59,036 nt of DNA from assembly GCA_036270795.1 (NCBI GenBank), contig DATBBW010000111.1, positions 1 through 59,036 on the forward strand, read 5' to 3'. Every line of letters begins with the position of its first letter. Within the stretch, counting starts at the first letter, position 1. This DNA is from Gemmatimonadales bacterium. Its GTDB lineage: Bacteria > Gemmatimonadota > Gemmatimonadetes > Gemmatimonadales > GWC2-71-9. The notes under the pieces are model-generated. The model saw nothing but the letters and a program-made list of their open reading frames with translations, did no database searches and was not told the origin of the DNA. A program made the translations under genes and the position numbers. Of the stretch, positions 26,191-52,420 are shown in pieces.

Positions 26191-26991
26191 TTAGGGAACC
26201 GGTGTGCCGGCCGGGGCGTCGACGGCGAAGAAAAACCGCGTGCCCCATCCCGGACGGGTCTCGACGTGCAATTCGGAGCGCATGGCGCGCACCAGTTTGC
26301 GGCAGATGGCGAGCCCCAGGCCAGAGCTGGAGAACTGCTGGCGCAGGCCGGACGACGCCTTACGGAACGGCTGAAACACTGACTCGATCGCGCCCGCGTC
26401 GAGTCCCGGGCCCGTGTCGCGGACGGAGAACTCGAGTTGGGTGGGCGTGAGGGGGCGCGCCGCGATTTCGACGAACCCGCTGTCGGTGTACTTGACGGCG
26501 TTCGTGGCGAGGTTCAGCAGGACGCGGGACAACGCGCGCGCGTGCCCGACCCGACGCTCGGGGACCGGGTAGCCGAATCGCACATCGAGCCCATGCTCCT
26601 CGGCGAGCGGCTGGATCATGCTGCGCACCGAGCCGAACATCTCGACCACGGAGAACGGCGCAGGATCGCGCTCGACCAGGCGGACACCGCCGCGGGCCAG
26701 CTCGAGCACGTCACTCGCGGCCGTGCACAAGCACAGGGCCGCACTGTAGATCAGCCCCAGCTGACGGCGCTGCGTCTCGGTGACCGCGCCGCCCTGGCCC
26801 TGCTGCATCGCCTCCGCGAGAAACAAAATCGACGTCAGCGGGGAGCGCAGGTCGTGCGCCATCTCGACGACCAGCTCGAGCCCGTTGGGACCGGCGAGAC
26901 AGGCGCTGAGATCGGGCGGCTCGAGGTCCGGCTGAGGCGCGCGGGCCGGTTGCGGCCGCCACTCGAGTTGCTCCGCCGTGTTGGTTCTCAT
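26191..26991 (-). CDS. Soluble histidine kinase with no recognisable sensor or TM domain (HisKA + HATPase_c only)
   Basis: The H-box is MAHDLRSPLTSILFLAEA, the N-box is LLNLATNAVKYT, and the G-boxes are DTGPGL and GLGLAICRKLV. SD GGAAGGAG precedes ATG 26991. Confidence 0.85.
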   Translation of the reverse strand: MRTNTAEQLEWRPQPARAPQPDLEPPDLSACLAGPNGLELVVEMAHDLRSPLTSILFLAEAMQQGQGGAVTETQRRQLGLIYSAALCLCTAASDVLELARGGVRLVERDPAPFSVVEMFGSVRSMIQPLAEEHGLDVRFGYPVPERRVGHARALSRVLLNLATNAVKYTDSGFVEIAARPLTPTQLEFSVRDTGPGLDAGAIESVFQPFRKASSGLRQQFSSSGLGLAICRKLVRAMRSELHVETRPGWGTRFFFAVDAPAGTPVP

Positions 26992-27010
26992 CCTAGGGCT
27001 CCTTCCCCTC

Positions 27011-28648
27011 TCACGAGGCGGCTCGCATGGCGTCCACGGGCTCGAGCGCGTCCGGTGACGTGGTTGCCTCGGCGGCGTCCGCCGGCGCCGCTGGCTCCCG
27101 CTCCACCACCCAGCCTGCCGTGGGGCTCCGCTGCAGGCTGTGACGTTCCATCAGTCGGTACAGCGTGGTGCGGTCGACGCCCGCGATCCGGGCAGCCTTC
27201 GACATGTTCCCCCCGGCGCGGTTCACGAGCCACGTCAGGTACTGCCGTTCGAACTGCGTGATGACGCGATCGCGGGCCGCGTGGTAGCTCTCCTCGAGCA
27301 GCGTGGCCACGAGCGCCGCGGGGTTGGCCCCGGTCTCGGGGGCAGCAGCGTCTCCGGTGAGCTGCAGGTGCTCGGGACCAATCGACGTCCCCGGTTCCGC
27401 AACGACGGCCAGGTGCTCGACCACGTTCTGCAACTCGCGCACGTTGCCGCGCCACGGATACGCGCACAGCGCGCGGAGCGCGGCGTCCGTCAGCTTGGGG
27501 AACGGCGCCCCTTTGCTGCGGTGCCGGACCCAGTACGTCGAGAGGAAATACTCGGCCAGCAGGGGAATGTCCTCCGGCCGCTCCCGCAGCGCGGGCACCT
27601 GGATCGGGACCACGCGCACGCGGTAGTACAGGTCTTCCCGCAGCGTGCCCGCCTTCACGGCCGCCTCGGGATCGCCGTTCGTCGCCGCGATGAAACGAAC
27701 ATTCACGACCGCGTCGGTCGTTTCACTGCCCACGCGGCGCACCACGCCATCCTGGATCACCCGCAGCAGCTTCGCCTGGATCGGCTTCGACATTTCGATC
27801 AGCTCATCCAGAAACAGCGTGCCGCCATTGGCCGCCTCGAGCAGGCCGGGCTTATCGCGCACTGCGCCGGTGAAGGCTCCCTTGCGGTGCCCAAACATCT
27901 CTGACTCGAGCAACCCCTCGGGGAGCGCCGCGCAGTTGACCGCGACGAACGGCCGGCTGGAGCGGCGGCTGTGATGGTGGATGAACTGCGCGATCATTTC
28001 CTTGCCCGTACCGCTCTCGCCGGTGATGAAGACCGACGCGTCGGTAGGAGCGACCTTGCGGGCCAGGTCGACGGCCCGGCGGAACGCGGGCGCCGTGCCG
28101 AGCAGCGCGATCTTGTCCGAGTGCACGTGCCGGCGCTCGAGCTCGCCCTGCTGCGCGCGTGTCTCCCGGGCGACGAGCAGCGTGTGCACGGCGCGCCCGA
28201 TCAACACCTGGAGGTGCGTGGCCGAGAACGGCTTCGGCAGGTAGTCGAACGCCCCTTGCCGCAGCGCCTCGACGCTCGAATCCACGCTGGGATTCCCGGT
28301 CATGACGACGACGACGGTATCGCGGTTCGTGGCGAGGGCCGCGCGCAACAGCACGAGGCCGCCCACCTGCGGCAGGTAGAGATCGACCAGCAGGATGTCG
28401 AAGGCGCGACGGCGCAGGAGGTCAAGGGCCTCTTGGCCGCGGCCGCTGACGGTCACGTCGTAGCCGTCTTGGCGGAGCACGCTGGCGCAGCTCTCGCGCA
28501 GCGTGTGCTCGTCATCCACGATCAGCACCCGGATCTGGGCCTTCACCTCGGGTCCGATCGGTAGCAGCGCCGCGAGGTTCTGCGCCTCGTCGGGCTCGCT
28601 GGCCCAAGGGGCCTTGTCCTGGGTAACCGGTATCGACATGGCGCTCAT
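27011..28648 (-). CDS. NtrC-family sigma-54-dependent response regulator (canonical REC + AAA+ + HTH)
   Basis: The REC domain keeps all conserved residues (LIVDDE, LLVDLYLP, VVMTG, LPKPF). Walker A is GESGTGKE, and GAFTGA is present. The C-terminal HTH is AARIAGVDRTTLYRLMERH. Confidence 0.9.
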   Translation of the reverse strand: MSAMSIPVTQDKAPWASEPDEAQNLAALLPIGPEVKAQIRVLIVDDEHTLRESCASVLRQDGYDVTVSGRGQEALDLLRRRAFDILLVDLYLPQVGGLVLLRAALATNRDTVVVVMTGNPSVDSSVEALRQGAFDYLPKPFSATHLQVLIGRAVHTLLVARETRAQQGELERRHVHSDKIALLGTAPAFRRAVDLARKVAPTDASVFITGESGTGKEMIAQFIHHHSRRSSRPFVAVNCAALPEGLLESEMFGHRKGAFTGAVRDKPGLLEAANGGTLFLDELIEMSKPIQAKLLRVIQDGVVRRVGSETTDAVVNVRFIAATNGDPEAAVKAGTLREDLYYRVRVVPIQVPALRERPEDIPLLAEYFLSTYWVRHRSKGAPFPKLTDAALRALCAYPWRGNVRELQNVVEHLAVVAEPGTSIGPEHLQLTGDAAAPETGANPAALVATLLEESYHAARDRVITQFERQYLTWLVNRAGGNMSKAARIAGVDRTTLYRLMERHSLQRSPTAGWVVEREPAAPADAAEATTSPDALEPVDAMRAAS

Positions 28649-35234: not shown

Positions 35235-36452
35235 ATGCGCCTCGTGTCGGTCGTCGGTGCGCGGCCCAATTTCGTCAAGCTGGCGCCGGTGGATCGGGCC
35301 CTCGCCCCGCGCCCCGACGTGGAACACGTCATCGTGCATACCGGCCAGCACTACGACCCCGAGATGTCGGCCGCGTTCTTCGAGGAGCTGTGGATCCCGG
35401 CGCCTGACTACAACCTCGGCGTCGGCTCCGGCTCGCACGCGAGCCAGACCGCCGCCGTGATGGAGCGGCTCGAACCGGTGCTCGCCCGCCTCCGGCCCGA
35501 TCTCGTCCTCGTATACGGCGACGCGAACTCCACGCTCGCCGCGGCGCTCGTCGCGGCCAAGCTGGGGTTGCCGATCGGCCACGTGGAAGCGGGATTGCGC
35601 AGCGGCCAGCGCACCATGCCCGAGGAGATCAACCGGGTGGTGACGGACCGCCTGTCCGATCTCCTGTTTACCTCGTCGCGCGAGGCGAGCGCGAACGTCG
35701 CGGCGGAGAGCATTGCCACCGAGCGCGTGCATTTCGTCGGCAGTGTGACGATCGACGCGCTGTGCTGGGCGCTCCCCCAGGCCCTCGCGCGCCAGGTCCC
35801 CGCACGGTATGGGCTGCCAGAGGGCGGCTACGCGGTGGTGACGCTGCATCAGCCGACCAACGTGGACGACCCCGCGGTGCTCGGGTTACTAGTCGGGGCC
35901 TTCGCGCGCCTGAGCGGCGAGCGCACGGTCGTGTTCCCGATGCACCCGCGCGCCCGGAAACGGCTGCACCAAGCCGGGGAGGCCGTGGACGGCGCCGGCG
36001 ATCTCCGCCTCCTCGCCCCCGTAGGCTACCTCGAGATGCTGGGCCTGATCGCCGGCGCGGCTGTGGTGATCACTGATTCGGGCGGGCTGCAAGAGGAAAC
36101 GACCTTCCTCGGCGTGCCCTGCCTCACCGTCCGGCCCACCACGGAGCGGCTGGTCACGTGCACCCACGGCACCAACCGCCTCGTGCCGCGGCAGGGCGAC
36201 GCGATCGTCGCAGCGGCCGAACGCGCGATCGCGCGGCGGGCACCGGTGCGCCCCCTCATCGAGCGGTGGGACGGCCACGCCGCCGAGCGGCTGGTGGGCG
36301 TCGTGTGCGACGGCGCAGCGTGGGGCGTCGAGGCCCAGGACGAGGCTGGCGTCGTTGGGACGCTGCCACCGGATGCGCTGCCCGACGACCCGGCCGCGGA
36401 GGCCCACGGTGCGCCGGAGGAGGCTTTCGCTGGAGCGACGCAGGCGCGCTGA
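35235..36452 (+). CDS. wecB: UDP-N-acetylglucosamine 2-epimerase (non-hydrolysing)
   Basis: Motifs are MRLVSVVGARPNFVKLAPV, VHTGQHYD, VYGDANSTLA, HVEAGLRS, PEEINR and TDSGGLQEE. Confidence 0.9.
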   Translation: MRLVSVVGARPNFVKLAPVDRALAPRPDVEHVIVHTGQHYDPEMSAAFFEELWIPAPDYNLGVGSGSHASQTAAVMERLEPVLARLRPDLVLVYGDANSTLAAALVAAKLGLPIGHVEAGLRSGQRTMPEEINRVVTDRLSDLLFTSSREASANVAAESIATERVHFVGSVTIDALCWALPQALARQVPARYGLPEGGYAVVTLHQPTNVDDPAVLGLLVGAFARLSGERTVVFPMHPRARKRLHQAGEAVDGAGDLRLLAPVGYLEMLGLIAGAAVVITDSGGLQEETTFLGVPCLTVRPTTERLVTCTHGTNRLVPRQGDAIVAAAERAIARRAPVRPLIERWDGHAAERLVGVVCDGAAWGVEAQDEAGVVGTLPPDALPDDPAAEAHGAPEEAFAGATQAR

Positions 36453-36787
36453 GGCGCGCAACGCTGTCTCTCGAACCAAGGAGGTGCCCCAGGTGACTGA
36501 CGTGGCGATGAGCGGGGAGCGGACCGCACGCCGCTCCCCGCGTCGCCCGGTGTGCCTGCGTGCTCGCTCTGGGCCCGGTGCCACTGGGCCATTTTCGTCT
36601 TGCAGCGGTTGGGGCGATCCGCTGGCCGATCAGGCGGGGAGGCGCACGAGGGGCGGCCACCCCGCCCGTGGTGCGCGCCCGCCCGCACAAGGCCCCAAAC
36701 TGCGGCTGCGGCACACCGAGCACGGCGGCGCCACACCACCGCCTCCCTCAGTGGACAGGTTCCCTGCCTTCCGAGTCTCAGCCTTCC

Positions 36788-36803
36788 TGGCACCACCTTT
36801 GCA
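36788..36803 (+). promoter_or_regulatory. Perfect-consensus sigma-54 promoter with no obvious downstream ORF (orphan)
   Basis: The sequence is TGGCACCACCTTTGCA, matching 10 of 10 defined positions. The next convincing CDS is 520 nt downstream. Confidence 0.6.
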
Positions 36804-37265
36804 ATGACACGTGCCCGAGCTCGCACGAGGACCTGTGTTGATCCTCGAGACGAGCCCCGTGGACCCGCTGACGGCGGGTGATCCGCCGCAGCCCACGGAC
36901 TGCAGGGCAGGGCATGGGTGGGGAGTTCGGGCCGACTGAGTTGACTGCTCGTGGATTGCGTTCCTCGGCTACCCGGGGTGGAGCAGAGGTACCCCGAGCA
37001 GTGGACCGACTCCCCCTCGCCCCGCTCGCGCGTGTCACCGATCCGGATCGCCCCGCCGCGCGGCGGCAGCGGCCGTGCTCGACCCTCTAGCTCCCATCGC
37101 TCGTGAATGTCACGTGAGCGCGGGCCACCGTTGCGCCCAATTTTGGTGCGTGGCGACTTGGCCAGCGCTTCAGTTCGCTGCAGTAGGCCTTGCCGACGAT
37201 CAGGTGTCATTATCGTAACGTGATATAGATCAGTCGCTTACGGTATCAGACGTGGGGAACGTCTG

Positions 37266-37281
37266 TGGCACTAGCCTTGCT
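37266..37281 (+). promoter_or_regulatory. Perfect-consensus sigma-54 promoter of the rsbR-like operon
   Basis: The sequence is TGGCACTAGCCTTGCT, matching 10 of 10. The predicted TSS is near 37292, which is 33 nt upstream of ATG 37325. A 7-bp inverted repeat cagacgt/acgtctg abuts it (37247..37265). Confidence 0.7.
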
Positions 37282-37324
37282 GTGGCGTCGGGGCAACATT
37301 TGTCCCCGACGAGGATCCCGAGCC

Positions 37325-38233
37325 ATGGCTAAGCAACAGCAAGAGCGGACGTCTCCCGCGGCCGGCCTGCCTGCCCAAACGCAGGACACCGTCGCGCTAC
37401 TGCGCGAACTGGTGGCTCACCTGCGCCAGAACCGCACCCAACTGCGCGAAGAGTGGGCCCGCCGTATCACCCGGGCCGAACTGCTCACGGCGATGACAGA
37501 GCAGGAAATCTTCGCCGAAGCGACCTCGGTGTACGACAACTACGTCGAGGCCCTCGAGACGGGGACGTTCGAGGCGTTGCAGGCGTACGCGCGCAACCTG
37601 TCAGAGCGCATCATCCCGCGCGGCGTCGAGACGCACGAAGTCGTCGGGATCGTGCTGCTGCTGCGCGACGTGCTGGCCCGCTCGCTGTTCGCCAAGTACC
37701 ACGAAGACTTCGATAAACTCAACCGCATTCTCGACGCGTACGAGCCCGCCGCGAACCGCATCGCCAACACCGTGGCCGTGGGCTTTGTGCAGGAACGCGA
37801 GCGCATCATCCGCCAGCAACAGGAGGCGATTCGCGAGCTCTCGACGCCGGTGCTCCAGGTGCGCGAACGGCTGCTCATCCTCCCCATCATCGGCGTGATC
37901 GATCCGCAGCGCAACCGGCAGCTCACCGAACAGCTGCTGCGGGCGATCCGCACCAACCGCGCCAAGGTCGTTGTGATCGACATCACCGGTGTGGCGGCGA
38001 TGGACTCCAATGTGGCGAACCAACTGGTGCAAACCGTCGAAGCCTCGCGGCTTTTGGGCGCCACGGTCATCGTCACCGGCCTCTCCCCCGAGATCGCGCA
38101 GACGCTCGTCACCATCGGTGTGGACTTGAGCGAAATGGCGACGGTCGGCGACCTGCAAGGCGGTATCGAGGAAGCGGAGCGGCTGCTCGGCTACAAGGTC
38201 CTGCCATTGGACGAGCTGACCCCGAAGGCCTGA
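37325..38233 (+). CDS. rsbR: RsbR-like stressosome sensor (N-terminal helical/globin-like domain + STAS)
   Basis: The STAS region is LLILPIIGVIDPQR...VVVIDITGVAAMDSNVANQL...VTGLSPEIAQTLVTIGV. Both Thr residues sit in the contexts of the RsbT-phosphorylated threonines of B. subtilis RsbR. Confidence 0.8.
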   Translation: MAKQQQERTSPAAGLPAQTQDTVALLRELVAHLRQNRTQLREEWARRITRAELLTAMTEQEIFAEATSVYDNYVEALETGTFEALQAYARNLSERIIPRGVETHEVVGIVLLLRDVLARSLFAKYHEDFDKLNRILDAYEPAANRIANTVAVGFVQERERIIRQQQEAIRELSTPVLQVRERLLILPIIGVIDPQRNRQLTEQLLRAIRTNRAKVVVIDITGVAAMDSNVANQLVQTVEASRLLGATVIVTGLSPEIAQTLVTIGVDLSEMATVGDLQGGIEEAERLLGYKVLPLDELTPKA

Positions 38234-38260
38234 GCTCGACTCACTCCGGCACCGGAGGGC

Positions 38261-38656
38261 GTGGTGGAAGTTCCGATCCTCAAGCAGGGCCAGTACCTCA
38301 TCGCCTCGATCCAGTCCGCGCTGACCGACGCGGATCTGTCGCAGCTGCGCGAGGCGCTGATCCAACGGGTGGGGAAGTTCCGGGCCCGCGGCGTCATCGT
38401 CGACGTCACCGCGCTCGACGTCATGGACTCGTTCGCCGTGCGCACCCTGCGCGATATCGCCCACATGGCGCGCCTGCGCGGCGCCGAGACCGTCATCGTC
38501 GGGATCCAGCCCGAGGTCGCCTTCGCCATGGTGCAACTCGGGTTGACGCTCAAAGGGGTCGCCACCGCGCTCGATCTCGAGGAGGGGTTGGCCTTTTTGG
38601 ACCGCCACGCCCAAGGCCGTCTCGACCAGGTGAAGGGCCCGATCACCCGTGGCTGA
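38261..38656 (+). CDS. rsbS: RsbS-like single-STAS stressosome scaffold protein
   Basis: The sequence VPILKQGQYLIASIQ...VIVDVTALDVMDSFAVR...GIQPEVAFAMVQLGL...TALDLEEGLAFL is collinear with B. subtilis RsbS as I recall it, including the phospho-Ser in the DSF context. GGAGGG is upstream. Confidence 0.85.
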   Translation: MVEVPILKQGQYLIASIQSALTDADLSQLREALIQRVGKFRARGVIVDVTALDVMDSFAVRTLRDIAHMARLRGAETVIVGIQPEVAFAMVQLGLTLKGVATALDLEEGLAFLDRHAQGRLDQVKGPITRG

Positions 38657-39059
38657 TGCCGTCCGGGTCCCGATCGCGGCCGACGTGGACGTGGTGGACG
38701 CGCGCCAACGCGGCCGCGAGCTGGCAGCGGAAGCCGGGTTCTCGAGCGGGGACCAAACCGTGATCGCCGCCGCGATCTCGGAAATCGCGCGCAACATCCT
38801 GATGTACGCGAAACGGGGCGAGGTCGCGGTCCGCATCGTCGCCAACGGCGACCGCCAGGGCGTCGAGGTGGTGGCGCGCGATCAGGGCCCCGGGATTGCC
38901 GATGTGGCGCGCGCCTTACAGGACGGGTATTCGACGTCGGGCGGCTTGGGCCTGGGCATGCCCGGCGCCCGGCGACTCATGGACGATTTCGACGTCACGT
39001 CGGCCGTGGGCCAGGGCACAACCGTGACGATGCGGAAATGGCGGCCCCTGACCGGCTGA
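38649..39059 (+). CDS. rsbT: RsbT-like serine kinase (GHKL ATPase, anti-sigma-factor-kinase type)
   Basis: The start overlaps rsbS by 8 nt. Motifs are ISEIARNILMYA (N-box), ARDQGPGI and GGLGLGMPGARRLMD. The protein is 136 aa. Confidence 0.8.
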   Translation: MADAVRVPIAADVDVVDARQRGRELAAEAGFSSGDQTVIAAAISEIARNILMYAKRGEVAVRIVANGDRQGVEVVARDQGPGIADVARALQDGYSTSGGLGLGMPGARRLMDDFDVTSAVGQGTTVTMRKWRPLTG

Positions 39060-39688
39060 GCGGCGGGGCGAATGCTCCCCACCTCATCGAGTACGGCGTC
39101 GCCACGCTCGCGCTTGCCGGCGAAACCGAATCGGGCGATCTCCACCTCGTGCAACCCGCCGGCACGGGCGTGCTGGTGTCCGTCGTCGACGGTCTCGGCC
39201 ACGGCCCGGAAGCGGCCGCCGCGGCACGCGCGGCCATCACTGCGTTGGCCCGACAGGCACCCGCGCCCGTGCTGACCCTGCTCCAGGCGTGCCACCAGGC
39301 GCTCATCGGGACTCGCGGCGTGGTGATGAGCCTCGCCAGCTTCGATCGCGCCGATGGCGCGATGACCTGGGTGGGCGTGGGCAATGTCGAGGGGGTGCTC
39401 CTCTACACCGACCCCGGGGCTCGTCAGGCGCACACCACCCTCGTCACCCGCGGTGGCATCGTCGGCGGGGAGCTGCCAAAGCTCCACGCCGAAGTCATCT
39501 CGATCTCCCCCGGCGACACCCTGATCTTTGCCACCGACGGGATCAAGGCCGCGTTTGCCGACGGCCTGCCGGTCGAGCTGGCGCCCCAAGAACTGGCCGA
39601 GCTCATTCTCGCGCGCCACTCCAAGGGAACGGATGATGCGCTCGTCTTGGTGGCCCGGTACACGGGCGGCCTCCGAGGCGCGGCGTGA
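39038..39688 (+). CDS. Stand-alone PP2C/SpoIIE-family phosphatase (RsbX-like)
   Basis: Motifs are [25 protein letters not shown] and IFATDGI. The protein is about 216 aa with no N-terminal RsbU-type domain. It overlaps rsbT by 22 nt. Confidence 0.75.
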
Positions 39689-41097
39689 CGCAATCGGTGC
39701 CGCTGCAATCATCGCCGGCGCCGGCGCCGCCCCAGCCGCCGAGCCCGCGGCTGCTGCAGGTGCTCGTCGTCACGGCCGAGGAGGGGGACGGGCTGCTCCC
39801 GAGTCTGCGCCAGTGGGCGGCCGATGCCGGCGTGGCGGTGCAGGCAGTTCCTGACCTCCCCCGCGCCGTGCGCCAACTCGCCGCCCAGCCTTGGGATATC
39901 GTGCTCGCGATCCTGGGCGAGCGCGCCGATGAAGATCTCACGTGGTGGGCGGACGCGCTGCGGGGGGCCGCAGGCACTCCGCGGCTCCTCGTGGCCGCGC
40001 TGGCGCCGTCCCTGGGGCTGGTGCTGCGCGCCGAGAAGCTCGGCGTGCTCGACCTGCTGTCCCTGCCGCTGCGCCGCGACGACATCGTCCGGGCCTTGGG
40101 CCGGGTGCGCGCCGCGGCCGCGGAAGTGGCCGTGCCGCTTCCGGAGGTGCAGCACCACGCGGTGGGGCCCTACGCCCTGGTGGGCCAGAGCCCCGCCATG
40201 CTCGAGGTCTACAAGCTGAGCGCGCGCGTGGCGGCGAGTAGCGCGACCGTCCTGATCCAGGGGGAGTCCGGCACCGGCAAGGAGGTCGTCGCGCGCGCCA
40301 TCCACGCGAACGGAGCCAAGGCTGCGGGCCCGTTCGTCGCCGTCAACTGCGCCGCCATCCCCGAGAACCTGCTCGAGAGCGAGTTGTTCGGCCACGAGAA
40401 GGGTGCGTTCACCGGGGCCGTCACCCGTAAGATCGGGCGCTTCGAGCAAGCCGCCGGGGGCACGCTGTTCCTCGACGAAATCGCGGACATGGGTCTCGCG
40501 CTGCAGTCGAAAATCCTGCGCGCCGTGCAGGAACGCGAGATCGAGCGGCTCGGCGGCGCCGGGTCGATCCCCGTCGAAGTGCGCCTCATCGCGGCCACGA
40601 ACCGCGACCTGCGCCAGGCGATTGCGCAGGGCCGCTTCCGGGAGGACCTGTACTATCGCCTCGCCGTGGTGACGATCCAACTCCCCACCTTGGCCAACCG
40701 GGGCGAGGACCTCGTCCTCCTGACCGCCTATTACGCCCGCCTCTTCGCCGAGCGCTATGGGAAGCGGCTGCGGGCCATCTCGGATCGCGCCCTGGAGCTG
40801 CTGCGCCACCACGCGTGGGTGGGGAACGTGCGGGAATTGCGCAACGTCGTGGAGCGCGCCGTCATCGTCGCGACGGACGACACGCTGCGCGCGGAGCACC
40901 TGCCGGAGGAGTTGCGGGGTGAGGACACCTCCCACGCCGACGGGCCGCAGGGCACCATGCTCACGCTGGCAGAGCTCGAGGCGCGCCATATCGCCCGGGT
41001 CCTGGCCCACACCGACGGGCAGATCGGCGCTGCCGCGGAGCTGCTCGGGATCCACCGCAACACGCTCACCCGGAAGATGAAGGAATACGGTCTGTGA
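39685..41097 (+). CDS. Sigma-54 enhancer-binding protein with an N-terminal pseudo-receiver domain
   Basis: There is a GTGA start/stop overlap. Walker A is GESGTGKE, and GAFTGA and [15 protein letters not shown] are present. The C-terminal HTH is [21 protein letters not shown]. The N-terminal REC-like fold lacks DD, the phospho-Asp, T and K. Confidence 0.88.
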
Positions 41098-42392
41098 GCG
41101 AGCCGCTCCTCCCCCCGCTGCGCGTCGAAAAGGCGGTCGAGCTGCTCCCCGACGTCGAGGCGCTGGCGCCGCTGCGTGCCCTGCTCGTGTCCATCGCCCG
41201 CGCCGACGAACGCTCCCGTTGGTCGAGCTCCGGTCCCTATCTGACACTGGGGAAGCGCGGGGTCGAGCCCGACGAACTGCGGCGCAGCGTGCCCCACGTG
41301 CTGCATCAGGTCACCGACCACGTGCGGAGCCTGTATGAGGCGTACGTGGGCGCGCTCGACGCGGTGCAACGGGGGGACGTGGCCCGGGCGGTCGCGGCAC
41401 TCCTGCACGCCGGCCGGCTGGAGGAGAGCGTGGGCCGGCTAGCGCAGAGCCGGGCCTGGTACGAGCGGGCGCGGAGCCTGGCCGCGACGCTGCCGGATCG
41501 CCGACCCGAGGTCGAATTGCTCGGCTCGCTCGGTCGGGTGGGGCTCGCGCTTGGCGATGCGGCCGAGGGCGCGCGGTATTTCCAGCGTGCCCTGGCGCTC
41601 GCCGAAGCAGAGTTCGACCAAGCCGGCGCGATCGCGGCGTGCGAGGGACTCGGGGACGCGGCACTGCGGCAGGGGGAATGGGCCGGCGCGCAAGCGTGGT
41701 ATGTGCGGGGACTGCGCCTGGCTGAGGCGTCGGACGATGCCCGCGGCGTGGGACGTCTGGAACGCCAGCTGGGCGCCGTGGCGCGCCGCCAGGGCGACCT
41801 CGTCCGCGCGGGCAACCACCTGCGCCGGGCGCGGGAGCGGCTGGAAGGAGCGGGGGCGGCGGAGGAGCTGGCCCACGTGCTCAACGTCCAGGGGCAACTC
41901 GACGCCCAGTCGGGACGCCACCAGGCAGCGTCGGCTGCGTACCGCGAGGCCCTGGCCTGGATGCAACGCGCGCCGCGCGACCTGGCCCTCGAGCTCGCCA
42001 TTCGGCTCGGCCTGAGCGAGCTACTCCTCGAGGCGACCCGGTACCTCGAGGCCGACGAGGAGCTGCGGCGCGCCGAGCAAGCAGCCATCGCCGGCAACCT
42101 CACCCTCCCCCTGGTGCAGATCTACACCCTGATGGGCAAGCTGCGCGGCGCCCAGGACGACGAGACGGGGTTCGTCTTCTTCGAGCAGGCGGTTGAGCTG
42201 TGCCGGACGCTCGGCCAATCCCTCGAGGCGGTGGCGCAGGTCTACTTCGAGTACGGCCTGTTCCGCGAGCGGCTGGGCCAGCTCGAGGAAGCGCGCGCCT
42301 ATCTCGAGCGGGCCCGCGGCATCTTCGAGTCGCTGGGGGAGGCGAGGGGACGCGACCGCGTGGAAACCGAGCTGAAGAAGCTGTCGGCCTAG
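41094..42392 (+). CDS. TPR-repeat protein (432 aa)
   Basis: There is a GTGA overlap with the bEBP gene. The sequence shows repeated A/L-rich 34-residue periodicity (W..A...Y...L.LA....D..G...). Confidence 0.75.
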
Positions 42393-42435
42393 CGCGCCGG
42401 GCGCCCGCGGCGCGCGCGTCGTTCGAGCCCCTGCG

Positions 42436-42663
42436 CTAATGATTCGTGAGCGGGTTCTTCTGCGTCGTCGTGTCCCGTCGCGCCGCGGTCCGCGCCGGGG
42501 CCTTCGACTTGGACTTCTTCGTCGAAGCCTTCGACCGCGTCGCGGCGGGTTTGGTCGCGTGCCCTGCGGCGCGGCTGTGCGTCGGGGCGGCTTGGGGCTT
42601 GCTGTCGCTGCCGCAGGCAGCGAGACCGAGCAGGGCCAGCGCTAGGAAGAACGGCTTCGACAT
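42436..42663 (-). CDS. Small basic lipoprotein (75 aa)
   Basis: GGAGG lies 4 nt upstream of ATG 42663. The signal peptide with lipobox is MSKPFFLALALLGLAAC. The mature part is Lys/Ala/Thr-rich. Confidence 0.55.
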   Translation of the reverse strand: MSKPFFLALALLGLAACGSDSKPQAAPTHSRAAGHATKPAATRSKASTKKSKSKAPARTAARRDTTTQKNPLTNH

Positions 42664-42719
42664 GGCTCCTCCGACGGCCGGTGGAGGTGCAATATACGAC
42701 ACTGGCCCGGCCCGCGCGC

Positions 42720-43115
42720 CTAGTCGCGCCTCACCGACCACGTGAGGCAGGTCGAGCCCCTCCACCCAGGAGACGCATCTCCCGCCCGGGGAACTCGCAC
42801 GCCTCCACCCCAGCGGGCTCCAGCCGGGACGGCGTTTCGGGGTTGCCGGCGATCGCCATGACCCGGCGCGGCGCGAGACCCAGCACGCCGCAGCCGAGCG
42901 TCGGGAACTCGGCATCCGGCAGCTCGACGAGCTCGATGCCCCGAGCCAGCAGGGCCTTCCGGAACGGCACTGGCATGAACGGCGCGAACATCAAACACCA
43001 GTCGCGGTCGAACGGGCTCGCCAGCGACATCGCGTGGAACACCTCGCTCGGCGTCCCGCACCTGCTTCACGGCGTGGCGCCGCAGCCGCCCCACGTCGCT
43101 CTCGCCGCTCAGCAT
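42720..43115 (-). pseudogene. Remnant (C-terminal half, frameshifted) of an amidinotransferase-superfamily enzyme (DDAH/arginine-deiminase-like)
   Basis: One frame gives FHAMSLASPF...ELPDAEFPTLGCGVLGL...EFPGREMRLLGGG. The expected catalytic-Cys motif GSTCLT continues in another frame after a G-run (about 42765..42775). No N-terminal half is present. Confidence 0.45.
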
Positions 43116-43201
43116 ACGCTCCCCGGCTGGCCACCGTTACGGTGTGGCACCAAGTTTAGCGACGTTCGCCCCAGCCGTCATTGCGCGCCGAGGAGACCTC
43201 C

Positions 43202-45213: not shown

Positions 45214-45840
45214 ATGTCGAATCGCAGACACCTCAGCGTCCTGGCTAGTGCTGTCGCGGGGGCGCTCGCGCTGGTTGCCTGTAGCGACCAGACGAACGTC
45301 ACGACGGTGCCCAAACGCCCGAGCTTTTGGGGCGGCGTCACCGAGTGCGTCACCGGGAAGTGGACGGGCGGCGGTCGGATGGACCCGCCCAACCCAGACG
45401 TCCCAGATGGCGCAACGGGAACGAGCACGATGCAGGGGAAGGTCACGTTCGGGTTCAACGTCTTTCTCGGGACGGACCCGGTTAGCGGGCAATGCATCGT
45501 CACCAAGGGTGAGATCCAAGTCAACCACCACCCCTCGCACACCAGCTGGCACGTCTCGATCCACAACGGGGTGGATGACTTCAATGAAACCGTGTTCGCC
45601 GAGATCATCTCCCCGGACGCATCGGGCAGAGGCGTGTGTCTCGTCGTGGGCGAGACGCCCATCACGGCGCGCGTCGACGGGCAAAAAGGCACGGACCAGG
45701 TGCAAATGGAGCTCTGCGACAACGACCCCGACGCCCCGCAAAACAGCCGCACCGATGCGATGCGGTGGATCACCGCGGGGCACGGAGACACGGACCTCAC
45801 GTACTTGACAGGCGGTAACATCGTCGATCACGGGGCGTGA
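45214..45840 (+). CDS. Hypothetical lipoprotein (208 aa)
   Basis: GGGAGG lies 7 nt upstream. The lipobox is ALALVAC. I recognise no family. The first 293 codons of the track ORF are an artefact. Confidence 0.65.
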   Translation: MSNRRHLSVLASAVAGALALVACSDQTNVTTVPKRPSFWGGVTECVTGKWTGGGRMDPPNPDVPDGATGTSTMQGKVTFGFNVFLGTDPVSGQCIVTKGEIQVNHHPSHTSWHVSIHNGVDDFNETVFAEIISPDASGRGVCLVVGETPITARVDGQKGTDQVQMELCDNDPDAPQNSRTDAMRWITAGHGDTDLTYLTGGNIVDHGA

Positions 45841-45902
45841 TGGGCGATCCCATGCCAGCTCACGAGGATCAAGCCTCTTGGAATCGAGGAAGGAGCGCAC
45901 TG

Positions 45903-46577
45903 ATGAACGACATGAGAATACACGGGACGCACCACCTCGCCGCCCTCGGTGTGGTCGTCGCCCTGACCGCAGGATTGGCGGTGGCGGGGACCGCGCAGAC
46001 CGTCTCGGGCCAGGCGTTCAGCACGTACGTCAACACATCGGTCGCGTCCAGCATCCAGTCGCCGCTGGTGGTGCTGCCCGCCGTCTCGGGGACGGATGGC
46101 GCCGAAGCGGATGCAGAGGGCGCTGGGGTGACGGTCGCCAACACGCTGTCATCTGATTTCCTGAACAGTATCACGTCGGGCGAACTCGACACGAGCGCGG
46201 CCGGCGCGCAGAGCACCGCGAGTGCGGCCGATATCAACGTCCTGAACGGGCTGATCACCGCGGATGAAGTGATCGCCAACGCGACGAGCAGCCGCACCGG
46301 GAGCGGGGCCGTCAGCAACGCCGACGGTTCGACGTTCCAGAACTTGGTGGTGGCCGGCGTGGCGCTGACGACGGGCGATGGACCGGTGGCGCCGAACACG
46401 ACCATCGCCTTGTCTGGGGTCGGTTACGTCGTGTTAAACGAACAGACCCTCTCGGGGGACGGCGTCACGACCAGCGGGATCACGGTGAACATGATTCACG
46501 TGTACCTACAGAGCGCCCTCGGCGGCCCGACCGGCGAGATCATCGTCGGTTCGGCGACGACGTCCGTGGGTTCCTGA
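45903..46577 (+). CDS. Hypothetical secreted Ala/Thr/Ser/Gly-rich protein (224 aa)
   Basis: GGAAGGAG lies about 9 nt upstream of ATG 45903. The signal peptide ends in AVAGTAQT. The composition is beta-rich and low in charge, and there is no recognisable C-terminal sorting signal. Confidence 0.6.
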   Translation: MNDMRIHGTHHLAALGVVVALTAGLAVAGTAQTVSGQAFSTYVNTSVASSIQSPLVVLPAVSGTDGAEADAEGAGVTVANTLSSDFLNSITSGELDTSAAGAQSTASAADINVLNGLITADEVIANATSSRTGSGAVSNADGSTFQNLVVAGVALTTGDGPVAPNTTIALSGVGYVVLNEQTLSGDGVTTSGITVNMIHVYLQSALGGPTGEIIVGSATTSVGS

Positions 46578-50934: not shown

Positions 50935-50950
50935 TGGCGCATAAATTGCA
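50935..50950 (+). promoter_or_regulatory. Sigma-54 promoter (TGGCGC-N5-TTGCA) of the precursor-peptide cassette
   Basis: The sequence is TGGCGCATAAATTGCA, matching 9 of 10 defined positions. The predicted TSS is near 50961, which is 51 nt upstream of ATG 51012. Confidence 0.65.
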
Positions 50951-51011
50951 GCGTCACCGCAGCGGGGTCGCTCATGTGGAGCTCCCAGCGCTTCATGAAG
51001 GGAGGGTAGCG

Positions 51012-51155
51012 ATGCATCCGCAACACGTGAAACGGCCGTTTGTGGCGCCTACGCTGCACCGGGAGGCGTCGCTCGCCAGCGTGACGCTGTGGAGTAGTGG
51101 AGGTGACGCTGGAGTCGAGGAACAGGAACACGAGGGATATGAGGGGTCAACGTAA
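51012..51155 (+). CDS. Candidate RiPP precursor peptide (47 aa) with a lasso-type leader motif
   Basis: GGAGGG lies 5 nt upstream of the ATG. The peptide is MHPQHVKRPFVAPTLHREASLASVTLWSSGGDAGVEEQEHEGYEGST. The segment F-xx-P-x-L-xxx-A-xxxxx-T-x has the spacing of the lasso leader motif YxxPxLx3Gx5Tx. Local GC3 is lower than in neighbouring genes. Confidence 0.6.
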   Translation: MHPQHVKRPFVAPTLHREASLASVTLWSSGGDAGVEEQEHEGYEGST

Positions 51156-51181
51156 GTGATACGAAGCGGTTGCCCCTTGTT

Positions 51182-51211
51182 GCGCCAGCCGCCGCCTTAA
51201 GCGGCTGGCGC
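51182..51211 (+). terminator. Intercistronic stem-loop between the precursor ORF and the kinase gene (attenuator or processing candidate)
   Basis: The arms gcgccagccgc (51182..51192) and gcggctggcgc (51201..51211) are exact reverse complements, with an 8-nt loop. There is no T-tract. Confidence 0.4.
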
Positions 51212-51233
51212 GCGTTCTGCGCCGGGTTCCACT

Positions 51234-52148
51234 GTGCCGACCCCCTTCCTCGTCTGCGACGATGCCCCCCTCCGAGCCAGCCTGACGGCATGGCTTGAGA
51301 AGGGAGGGCTCGCTCCGTCGACCGCCTTGACCCTCGTCGTTCAGGTCGGCGATCCACCGCCCCTCGACGCCGATGATCGCCCGGTGTTCCACCAGCCTGA
51401 CGTCCTCATTCGTTCCGGCCCCCCGCACGGCACGCTGACGCTGTCCTGGGAGCGGGCCCCGGCCCTGGCCGAGATCGCGCCCGGCACGCAGACCGCGCGC
51501 GTGACCCTGTCGCGGCTGGCGGTGGCGCGACTCCAGGAGTGCACCTGCACGTTTTTCATGGCGGTCTTGATCTTCCTCTTGCGGCGCGCGGGCTGGCACC
51601 ACGTGCACGCCGGCACGGCGATCGACCCGGCGGGGCGCGGCTGGCTGATCGCCGGCGATAGCGGGGCCGGAAAGTCGACGACTGCGGCGCTGTTCGCGTC
51701 GCATGGCTGGCAGGTCGGCACCGACGACGCCACGTTTCTCGCACCCGCGGGCGCACAGGTGGCCGCCGTGGCCTACCGCGCCCCCATCGCCTTGCGCCCG
51801 GACGCGCAGCGCGCGCTCGGCCGCTCCGGCGGGATCCCGGTCGCGGGGCGCCGCAAGGCGGCGTACTGGCCCGAAGACCTCGGGGGACGCTGGGCACCGA
51901 AGGTCGAACCCGAAATCGTGGCATTCACATCGGTGGGGGAAGGACCCACTCGGGCGGCGCGGCTCGGAGCGCGTGCGGCCTTGGCGCAGCTGGTGCGCTG
52001 GTCGGCCTGGGTGGTGCTCGAGCCCGACTTGGCCCAGGAGCACCTCGACTTGCTCGCGCGGCTCGCGCGACAGGCCCGGAGCTATCGCGTCAGCTTGGGG
52101 CCCGATCTCTTCACCGACGTGGCCGGCCTCCCCGACCTCGTTCGATGA
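51234..52148 (+). CDS. HPr-kinase-related serine kinase (lasso/RiPP-associated type)
   Basis: The P-loop GDSGAGKST sits in an HprK C-terminal-domain-like context (WLIAGDSGAGKSTTAALF). The protein is 304 aa with a GTG start. Confidence 0.75.
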   Translation: MPTPFLVCDDAPLRASLTAWLEKGGLAPSTALTLVVQVGDPPPLDADDRPVFHQPDVLIRSGPPHGTLTLSWERAPALAEIAPGTQTARVTLSRLAVARLQECTCTFFMAVLIFLLRRAGWHHVHAGTAIDPAGRGWLIAGDSGAGKSTTAALFASHGWQVGTDDATFLAPAGAQVAAVAYRAPIALRPDAQRALGRSGGIPVAGRRKAAYWPEDLGGRWAPKVEPEIVAFTSVGEGPTRAARLGARAALAQLVRWSAWVVLEPDLAQEHLDLLARLARQARSYRVSLGPDLFTDVAGLPDLVR

Positions 52149-52420
52149 CGGATCGCTACCGCCGCCACCACGACCTGCGGCTCGCCGCGCTCGAGGACGA
52201 GGGTGTGATCCTGCACCTGGGCTCGCGCAGCTACTTCACCGTGAGCGAAAGCGGCGTCCTCATCTTTGAGGCGCTCGCGACGCCCCACAGTGTCGAGGAG
52301 CTCGTCGCAGTCCTCCAGGCTCGCTACGAGGTCAATGCCGAGCAGGCCGAGGCGAGTGTGCGCGATTTCCTCGAGCGTTGCCGCGCCGCCGATCTGCTGG
52401 AAATCGAGGCAGGCGCGTGA
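52145..52420 (+). CDS. PqqD-family protein (RiPP recognition element, lasso B1-like)
   Basis: There is an ATGA overlap with the kinase gene. The 91-aa protein reads LRLAALEDEGVILHLGSRSYFTVSESGVLIFEAL...SVEELVAVLQARYEV...VRDFLERC, the typical PqqD pattern. Confidence 0.8.
   Translation: MTDRYRRHHDLRLAALEDEGVILHLGSRSYFTVSESGVLIFEALATPHSVEELVAVLQARYEVNAEQAEASVRDFLERCRAADLLEIEAGA

Follow-up and report, generated by a model that had tools for sequence, protein, structure and literature searches.

Where does a stressosome send its signal when the genes directly behind it encode a sigma-54 activator and none of the usual partner proteins? The question is raised by a run of six genes in a 59,036-nt contig (DATBBW010000111.1 of assembly GCA_036270795.1, G+C content about 70%) from a Gemmatimonadales metagenome-assembled genome (MAG); the whole contig is referred to here as the window. 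Four of these genes encode a stressosome-type RsbR-RsbS-RsbT-RsbX module (RsbRSTX), and the remaining two encode a bacterial enhancer-binding protein (bEBP), with a degenerate receiver-like domain (the pseudo-receiver) at its N-terminus, and a tetratricopeptide repeat (TPR) protein. The evidence presented below describes an operon with a sigma-54-type promoter that its own bEBP most likely activates, and whose stressosome may signal to that same bEBP.

The six open reading frames (ORFs) all lie on the plus strand within positions 37265-42392. In order, they encode an RsbR-like protein of 302 amino acids with an N-terminal RsbRD_N-type sensor and a C-terminal STAS domain (37325-38233, in a frame that is open from 37265), an RsbS-like single-STAS protein of 131 amino acids (38261-38656), an RsbT-like GHKL serine kinase of 136 amino acids (38649-39059), a stand-alone PP2C phosphatase of 216 amino acids (39038-39688), the 470-residue bEBP (39685-41097) and the 432-residue TPR protein (41094-42392). 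When the rsbR start is placed at ATG 37325, the recomputed gene junctions are +27, -8, -22, -4 and -4 nt, which bears out the tight packing and the overlaps reported in the initial annotation. Both 4-nt overlaps have the sequence GTGA, so that the GTG start of the bEBP gene overlaps the PP2C stop and the start of the TPR gene overlaps the bEBP stop; for rsbX, ATG 39038 is the sole usable start. No sigma-70-like promoter was detected within 36400-43200, and no convincing internal terminator was found. Profile hidden Markov models (HMMs) from Pfam assign STAS, STAS, HATPase_c_2, SpoIIE/PP2C, Sigma54_activat and TPR to the six products, in agreement with the domains that had been read from the translations.

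The first four products make up the complete stressosome-type set that had been proposed, as judged by Pfam and by homology to Listeria RsbR and RsbS. The RsbR-like protein matches STAS with an expectation value (E) of 4e-15, and its N-terminal half, scanned alone, reaches 26.3 bits for RsbRD_N against a cut-off of 24.3; it aligns over its full length with RsbR of the Listeria monocytogenes stressosome (9o3o/7b0u, E 1e-31). The RsbS-like protein matches STAS (1.2e-14) and Listeria RsbS (1e-27), and its Ser57, the serine of the DSF motif singled out initially, corresponds in the alignment to the phospho-serine of Listeria (replaced by Ala in the 9o4r variant) and lies in a VMDSF motif that is present in 53/53 relatives. 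The RsbT-like protein, read from the start as a GHKL kinase, matches HATPase_c_2 (4.5e-14), and its N-box (E-x-A-R-N) and G1 box (D-x-GPGI) are conserved among relatives. Close homologues carry the JGI name 'serine/threonine-protein kinase RsbT'; among PDB chains no RsbT match was obtained, the sole match being SpoIIAB (3e-5). The phosphatase matches SpoIIE (7.2e-12) over residues 43-207 and has no second domain, as expected for a stand-alone PP2C of RsbX size. In characterised stressosomes, RsbR and RsbS assemble into a pseudo-icosahedral complex of about 1.8 MDa that sequesters RsbT.

The phosphorylation sites of RsbR are the one part of this assignment that has to be withdrawn. Threonines are indeed present in the VIDITGV and SPEIAQT contexts that had been named, but they lie off the acceptor positions. 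Listeria RsbR variants in the PDB carry Ala at exactly two sites, in IGTID-T-ER and VVD-T-MV, which are the known phospho-threonines T175 and T209 (T171 and T205 in Bacillus subtilis). In the alignment to Listeria RsbR, the equivalent of T175 in the window protein is Pro194 (IGVIDPQR) and that of T209 is Ser228 (AAMDSNV). All 53 relatives have Pro at the first position, and the second holds Ser (41) or Ala (12), so phosphorylation of RsbR is not conserved in this clade. The module therefore has four of the five sequence traits of the RsbRSTX family, the exception being the RsbR phospho-threonines, and no RsbU_N partner for it was found.

The fifth product is a sigma-54 activator by its AAA+ and helix-turn-helix (HTH) domains, but it is no response regulator. 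Pfam matches comprise Sigma54_activat (1.8e-72), AAA_lid_14 and HTH_8 (1.1e-14), and the domain map runs from the pseudo-receiver (residues ~23-146) through an AAA+ domain with GAFTGA (165-332) and a lid to a Fis-type HTH (427-468). The GAFTGA motif is exact in 46/60 relatives, with the other 14 differing by one residue, and the Walker A sequence GESGTGKE is exact in 58/61, with GDSGTGKE in the other three. The N-terminal 160 residues match no Pfam family, including Response_reg and FleQ, even at E<=10, and the homologues of this domain, at least 39% identical, are without exception fragments from soil metagenomes. An AlphaFold2 (AF2) model of the domain, built on 13 database homologues, has (beta-alpha)5 topology with a predicted local distance difference test score (pLDDT) of 85, and the top matches of a Foldseek search against the PDB are receiver domains with template modelling (TM) scores of 0.76-0.79 (NtrC1, NtrC4, DctD and the non-phosphorylatable AmiR and HP1043). 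With the strands placed on the sequence, the position of the acceptor Asp is occupied by Ile76, and all relatives have V, A, I or M there. The position of the conserved Lys is occupied by Leu127; the Lys is replaced in every member of the family and the Pro that follows the position is kept. An invariant PSMGL motif lies at helix alpha-4. On the strength of the model, the domain is predicted to be a receiver fold unable to accept phosphate, which is what had been claimed from the translation. Because this receiver-like domain lacks a phospho-acceptor, the bEBP must depend on a controller that is not a histidine kinase.

The sixth product was annotated as a TPR protein, and this is supported by TPR_12 (9e-23) and related Pfam families, among them a weak TPR_MalT match. 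A conserved helical N-terminal region (residues ~1-100) is followed by TPR repeats that resemble those of MalT and AfsR. Homologues number 440; the best 120 of the 440 are 63-100% identical, and those with a named source are from Gemmatimonadales.

A scan of one genome per GTDB species with a pseudo-receiver profile yielded 59 loci, nearly all from Gemmatimonadales or Gemmatimonadetes MAGs. Wherever the contig extends far enough, the six genes are collinear in these loci, and the same order is seen in three further contigs (L001, L002 and L142). The arrangement is conserved in every relative found. Identity to the window proteins ranges over 88-97% for RsbR, 81-94% for RsbS, 64-86% for RsbT, 48-71% for PP2C, 44-69% for the pseudo-receiver, 70-86% for the AAA+/HTH part of the bEBP and 42-74% for the TPR protein. 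Gene coupling is preserved as well: the 4-nt overlap is kept between PP2C and bEBP in 49/60 loci and between bEBP and TPR in 47/52, and the RsbT/PP2C junction stays within 8 nt in 50/56. Synteny of the flanking genes (GlmS, UDP-GlcNAc 2-epimerase, amidase, adenine glycosylase and ADH) is limited to about 40-50% of loci. Because gene order is fairly well kept across the lineage as a whole, synteny by itself is moderate evidence. The pseudo-receiver bEBP family is always located behind RsbR-S-T-X and before the TPR gene where the contig reaches that far. Outside Gemmatimonadales, the GTDB-species scan returned no member of this bEBP family, and a scan of metagenomes for RsbT revealed no second lineage with this wiring among the 80 loci listed.

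What drives the operon can be read more directly than what its stressosome controls. A perfect sigma-54 promoter (TGGCAC-N5-TTGC, TGGCACTAGCCTTGC) is located at 37266-37280 on the plus strand, 59 nt 5' of the rsbR ATG. It had been recognised initially, and its core, GGCA[CT]-N5-TTGC, is retained in 46/46 relatives for which upstream DNA is available, 33 of which have the exact TGGCAC-N5-TTGC. An alignment of the upstream DNA from these 46 loci contains only two further strongly conserved blocks, both of them 15-mers of the form GC-N11-GC that become clear GCAC-N7-GTGC palindromes in distant loci. In the window, the corresponding putative enhancer sites, both of the NtrC type and on the plus strand, are site 1 (GCCCAATTTTGGTGC, 37135-37149), about 149 nt before the predicted transcription start, and site 2 (GCTTCAGTTCGCTGC, 37167-37181), which lies 32 bp, or three helical turns, 3' of site 1 and about 117 nt before the predicted start. 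When 15 loci were scanned with a position weight matrix (PWM), the two sites were found at -132 +/- 2 and -99 +/- 1 from the GG of the -24 element, and they are aligned in 46/46 loci. The symmetrised matrix reads GCaCCA-N3-TGGtGC, with centres 32 bp apart; this is the enteric NtrC consensus (GCACC-N5-GGTGC), and the two-site geometry is that of glnAp2.

Two other elements of this region are candidates only. An AT-rich stretch between enhancer and promoter (37205-37245, plus strand) contains a partly conserved ATCAG-N4-TTA that looks IHF-like by eye, and its alignment consensus is 'tT...a....gTTa.g'. A palindrome or hairpin sits astride the predicted start (TGTGGCGTCGGGGCAACA, 37281-37300, plus strand; TGTTGCG-N4-6-GCAACA in relatives). 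Across the 46 aligned loci its stem is conserved in sequence and does not covary, and it could be an operator or a 5' RNA hairpin.

A comparison with related modules that lack the bEBP connects this promoter to the bEBP gene. A broad RsbT profile run against JGI metagenome contigs listed 80 loci, of which one is of the window type and 79 (in the range L062-L141) have RsbR-RsbS-RsbT-RsbX without a bEBP. No bEBP or TPR gene is located within up to 8 kb of these 79 sister modules, whose RsbR is 70-96% and whose RsbT is 52-75% identical to the window proteins. RsbR is unusually conserved both here and within Gemmatimonadales, unlike in classic stressosomes, where the RsbR N-domain is the variable part. 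A -24/-12 element precedes rsbR in 0/31 sister loci with upstream DNA, so that the sigma-54 promoter co-occurs with the in-operon bEBP in 46/46 versus 0/31 loci. The conserved promoter occurs only where the bEBP is present, as autoregulation predicts, and the most likely reading, a well supported one, is that the in-operon bEBP would switch on its own operon through the enhancer sites in a positive feedback loop. Such positive autoregulation had been suggested on the basis of the promoter, and the 46 bEBP-type loci now add the two NtrC-type sites to it. The bEBP probably acts on other sigma-54 promoters as well.

Some observations weigh against autoregulation. The co-occurrence may reflect a single evolutionary event, given that the bEBP-type loci all come from a single order in which synteny is generally conserved. 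An RpoN-box pattern gave no match in the 1.4 Mb of locus DNA examined. In addition, the window contains a canonical two-component pair on the minus strand (26191-28648), in which a histidine kinase (26191-26991) is paired with an NtrC-type bEBP (27011-28648). The receiver of this second bEBP is intact (DD, D, T, K), and the protein, encoded 9 kb upstream, could also use the NtrC-like sites. It is conceivable, then, that this regulator, or another with its gene elsewhere, occupies the sites and drives the operon, and that the in-operon bEBP controls other promoters only. The enhancer sites do fit the general NtrC consensus GCACC-N5-GGTGC, and an intact NtrC-type bEBP and kinase are found near the locus in L142 as well as in the window. 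The in-operon bEBP has a Fis/NtrC-type HTH of its own, for which the PDB matches, to the Fis and NtrC DNA-binding domains, are generic and therefore cannot tell which bEBP binds the enhancer. However, control by such an outside activator is very improbable given that the sigma-54 promoter is confined to loci with the in-operon bEBP.

It is more difficult to establish where the stressosome signal goes. The initial annotation held that every canonical downstream component is absent. This stands for the 59-kb contig, in which rsbV, rsbW and sigB were looked for: an RsbU_N HMM run against its six-frame translation gave no match, and no extra STAS or GHKL paralogue was found. The sister loci indicate what an output gene looks like in this position. 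In the eight that were tested, the gene directly after RsbX encodes a histidine kinase that carries RsbU_N and, in some cases, PAS, GAF or receiver domains; such a protein is the known two-component type of output, to which RsbT docks. Because the bEBP gene of the window-type loci occupies this same place, it sits in the output slot of the module.

From gene context, we tentatively suggest that RsbT signals to the bEBP/TPR pair; if a variant with the opposite sign, discussed below, is counted in, signalling from RsbT to the pair becomes rather probable. Somewhat more speculative is the specific proposal that released RsbT directly controls the bEBP, by way of the phosphotransfer-dead receiver and/or with the TPR protein as adaptor, at a new interface that would replace RsbU_N docking. 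By homology with known systems, the RsbR and RsbS scaffold would hold the RsbT kinase, a signal would lead RsbT to phosphorylate Ser57 of RsbS and to be released, with RsbR contributing no conserved phospho-site, and the PP2C would reset the module. As gene context suggests, freed RsbT might then act on the bEBP and the TPR protein, the genes for which are translationally coupled to the module. This action could consist of binding or of Ser/Thr phosphorylation, for which the invariant Ser109 in the PSMGL motif on helix alpha-4 is a candidate site, and it would relieve a block on assembly of the bEBP AAA+ ring. The active bEBP would bind the two palindromes and turn on its own operon and, probably, other sigma-54 promoters.

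Several results count against a direct RsbT link to the bEBP or the TPR protein, which is plausible and is drawn from gene context. Neither the N-region of the TPR protein nor the N-domain of the bEBP has a Pfam match to RsbU_N (PF08673) at E<=10, and in hhalign comparisons with an RsbU_N alignment built from sister loci the probabilities are 2% for the TPR N-region and 6.6% for the pseudo-receiver. An AF2 model of the TPR N-region, built with database homologues, is all helical (pLDDT 79) and has no significant PDB match (best E 0.37). With the Pfam, hhalign and fold searches all negative, a hidden RsbU_N in either domain was rejected. No RsbT-bEBP fusion is present among the 10 longest of 150 RsbT representatives (clustered at 50% identity). 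Finally, another group of sister loci has a MatE transporter gene after RsbX and no adjacent output gene, so an output encoded elsewhere is possible.

The same 10 longest representatives do include fusions of RsbT to RsbU_N-HD-GYP, a histidine kinase, an extracytoplasmic function (ECF) sigma factor, PP2C and a canonical receiver. Individual cases are P0319 (RsbU_N and HD-GYP), P0242/P0276 (ECF sigma factors), P0348 (histidine kinase) and P0345 (canonical receiver). Some of these may be gene-calling read-throughs; as a group they hint at further output types. The RsbT-fused receiver of P0345 was considered as a relative of the pseudo-receiver and rejected, as it is a normal phosphorylatable receiver and unrelated.

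The missing docking domain and the MatE-type sister loci would both be accommodated if the bEBP and the TPR protein acted upstream of the stressosome. The TPR protein would then sense a cue and control the bEBP as NifL controls NifA, the bEBP would set the dosage of the stressosome, and the partner of RsbT would be located elsewhere, for example as an RsbU_N kinase or phosphatase. Such an arrangement would suit the resemblance of the TPR region to the MalT/AfsR sensor domains, and the co-occurrence of promoter and bEBP says no more than that the operon is driven by the bEBP. The stressosome genes of Vibrio vulnificus are also transcriptionally induced, in that case by starvation (PMC9237108). 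However, the bEBP gene is at the exact position of the RsbU_N output gene of sister loci and is translationally coupled to the PP2C gene in most loci, the bEBP family has never been found apart from RsbRSTX, and no RsbU_N was found in the 59-kb contig. On balance, the upstream role is rather unlikely.

If RsbT does signal to the pair, the sign of its effect has to be considered. Free RsbT might bind the pseudo-receiver or the TPR protein and keep the bEBP inactive in the manner of an anti-sigma factor, with unphosphorylated RsbS and RsbR capturing RsbT and so freeing the bEBP. RsbT shares its GHKL family with the anti-sigma kinases SpoIIAB and RsbW, bEBPs are commonly held by anti-activators (PspA-PspF, NifL-NifA and HrpV-HrpS), and the gene context applies to this sign equally. 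But released RsbT activates RsbU in characterised stressosomes, and under positive feedback the inhibitor would rise as the operon is induced; inhibition by free RsbT is accordingly regarded as improbable, and release of RsbT as an activating step is the version carried forward here.

Perfect -24/-12 matches are limited to three in the 59 kb, at 36788, 37266 and 45143, and the two outside the operon, together with a site at 50935, had been put forward as candidate targets of the bEBP. The 45143 site fares best, with a conserved linkage and a promoter of its own, but without the same enhancer motif. On the plus strand, this perfect promoter (TGGCACCGCCCTTGC) is followed by a lipoprotein gene (45215-45840) and a secreted-protein gene (45837-46577) with no Pfam family; a ribosome-binding site (RBS) and ATG are located 57 nt downstream of the promoter. 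In at least 18 related loci, a homologous lipoprotein/secreted pair with one -24/-12 element lies directly 5' of rsbR (e.g., L001 3111-4548 and L004 5698-7200). This unit is, as far as its sequence can tell, a conserved predicted sigma-54 unit physically linked to the operon. In the window contig, the pair has moved 3 kb downstream of the operon. The genes fit a sigma-54 output, since functions at the cell exterior are typical of sigma-54 regulons (PMC3162934). At units of the 45143 type in related loci, the rsbR-type enhancer motif occurs only inconsistently. An enhancer PWM derived from 92 conserved sites gives single matches 97 nt 5' of 36788 (score 12.6) and 287 nt 5' of 45143 (11.7), which are not conserved in relatives except L046. 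The NtrC-type bEBP at 27011-28648 could serve any sigma-54 promoter of the contig.

The perfect promoter at 36788-36802 (plus strand) heads a structured RNA motif of about 100 nt (36920-37016), and is less convincing as a target. Situated between the upstream gene and the enhancer sites of rsbR, this motif occurs in 16/46 loci, with compensatory changes at 10/27 predicted pairs and a G-U pattern that fits the plus strand. A sigma-54-like -24/-12 element lies 50-130 nt 5' of it in 12/16 loci, and in 14/16 a T-run comes after its closing helix and overlaps enhancer site 1. Rfam returned no family match for the window, the rsbR leader or the motif itself, which might act as a small RNA under sigma-54 control or as a leader/attenuator.

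The third candidate, a near-consensus site at 50935 (TGGCGCATAAATTGC, plus strand), has one mismatch (TGGCGC). An RBS, a 47-codon ORF, an HPr-kinase-like P-loop gene (51234-52148) and a PqqD gene (52145-52420) follow, and together 50935-52420 looks like a small cluster for a ribosomally synthesised and post-translationally modified peptide (RiPP) of the lasso-peptide type. No homologue of this cluster was found in the related loci examined, and with its imperfect promoter it is not retained as a target. Behind the operon, the window carries on the minus strand a 103-codon remnant of an arginine deiminase (ADI)/DDAH-type gene (42731-43042), which matches the C-terminal part of the Pfam ADI family only and overlaps a 159-codon ORF without a family (42436-42915); the ADI gene is intact (294 amino acids) at the same place in L002.

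Whether such wiring has precedents can be judged from known systems. Stressosomes occur widely but, to our knowledge, their characterised outputs are limited to sigma B and, in part, a single two-component/c-di-GMP system, and all described outputs use the RsbU_N docking domain. The Moorella thermoacetica stressosome is said, in work of 2012 by Quin and co-workers, to be linked to c-di-GMP signalling, and other second-messenger outputs are listed in Pane-Farre 2005/2017. Alternative sigma factors, second messengers and two-component systems are the output classes given by the reviews that PMC10014275 cites. A sigma-54 bEBP is not among these classes, and the statement of the initial annotation that stressosome modules feed outputs such as two-component systems and c-di-GMP enzymes agrees with them. 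The Moorella module resembles the present one in that a single RsbRST sensing core is combined with exchangeable downstream modules, and the nearest link in the literature is that the V. vulnificus stressosome indirectly affects expression of fleQ (PMC10014275 for both). A full-text literature search found no paper describing stressosome-to-bEBP wiring, which is consistent with the earlier remark that no characterised stressosome-to-bEBP/RpoN pathway was known. The RsbRSTX core is familiar, and its pairing with a pseudo-receiver bEBP and a TPR protein, for which no describing paper was found, appears to be new for stressosomes.

Compared with the B. subtilis and L. monocytogenes stressosomes, which signal through RsbU-RsbV-RsbW to sigma B, the window module shares the R-S-T-X order, the RsbS serine, the RsbT boxes and a stand-alone PP2C. 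It differs in that no RsbU_N, RsbV, RsbW or sigB was found nearby, in the replacement of the RsbR threonines by Pro and by Ser/Ala, in its sigma-54-type operon and in the adjacent bEBP and TPR genes. The VvRsbRSTX-D1-D2 locus of V. vulnificus and the soil sister loci are closer, with an RsbRSTX core, an output gene directly after RsbX and no sigma B. The output of the soil loci, however, is RsbU_N fused to a histidine kinase, without a sigma-54 promoter, whereas here it would be a bEBP with a pseudo-receiver.

Among bEBPs, FleQ/FlrA-FleN, NifA-NifL and PspF-PspA, along with the pseudo-receiver pair AmiR-AmiC, provide examples of degenerate receivers or protein co-regulators, to which the acceptor-less receiver-like domain may be compared; AmiR and HP1043 are among its fold matches, but its N-domain, unlike that of FleQ, falls into no Pfam family. 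In nifLA the gene of the co-regulator is translationally coupled, as are the TPR and bEBP genes here. We know of no GHKL serine kinase module, and of no TPR protein, that regulates a bEBP. The Vibrio fischeri syp locus also combines a STAS partner-switching pair (SypA/SypE) with a sigma-54 bEBP (SypG) (PMC4517449, PMC10120452). It lacks the RsbR/RsbS/RsbT triad, however, and the receiver of SypG is normal and phosphorylatable. SypA and SypE act downstream of syp transcription and not on SypG. The enhancer region resembles enteric NtrC at glnAp2, which has two GCACC-N5-GGTGC dyads three helical turns apart and about 110-150 nt 5' of the -24/-12 element, but the activator here has no phosphorylatable Asp and the operon is concerned with stress sensing, not with nitrogen assimilation.

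If the link from RsbT to the bEBP is real, sigma-54 enhancer-dependent transcription would constitute a fourth class of stressosome output. It would also be the first partner-switching input into enhancer-dependent transcription, with built-in positive feedback and a cell-envelope sigma-54 regulon as output. Should the link be transcriptional only, with the bEBP setting the dosage of the stressosome, the locus would still represent a clear sigma-54-controlled, autoregulated stress-sensing module. Near-identical RsbR proteins wired either to an RsbU_N histidine kinase or to a pseudo-receiver bEBP form a natural comparison set, which could reveal the rules by which RsbT chooses its partner, and the operon is an example of how a non-phosphorylatable bEBP receiver might be regulated. 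For the Gemmatimonadales, which are abundant and mostly uncultured soil bacteria, it would offer a first regulatory handle.

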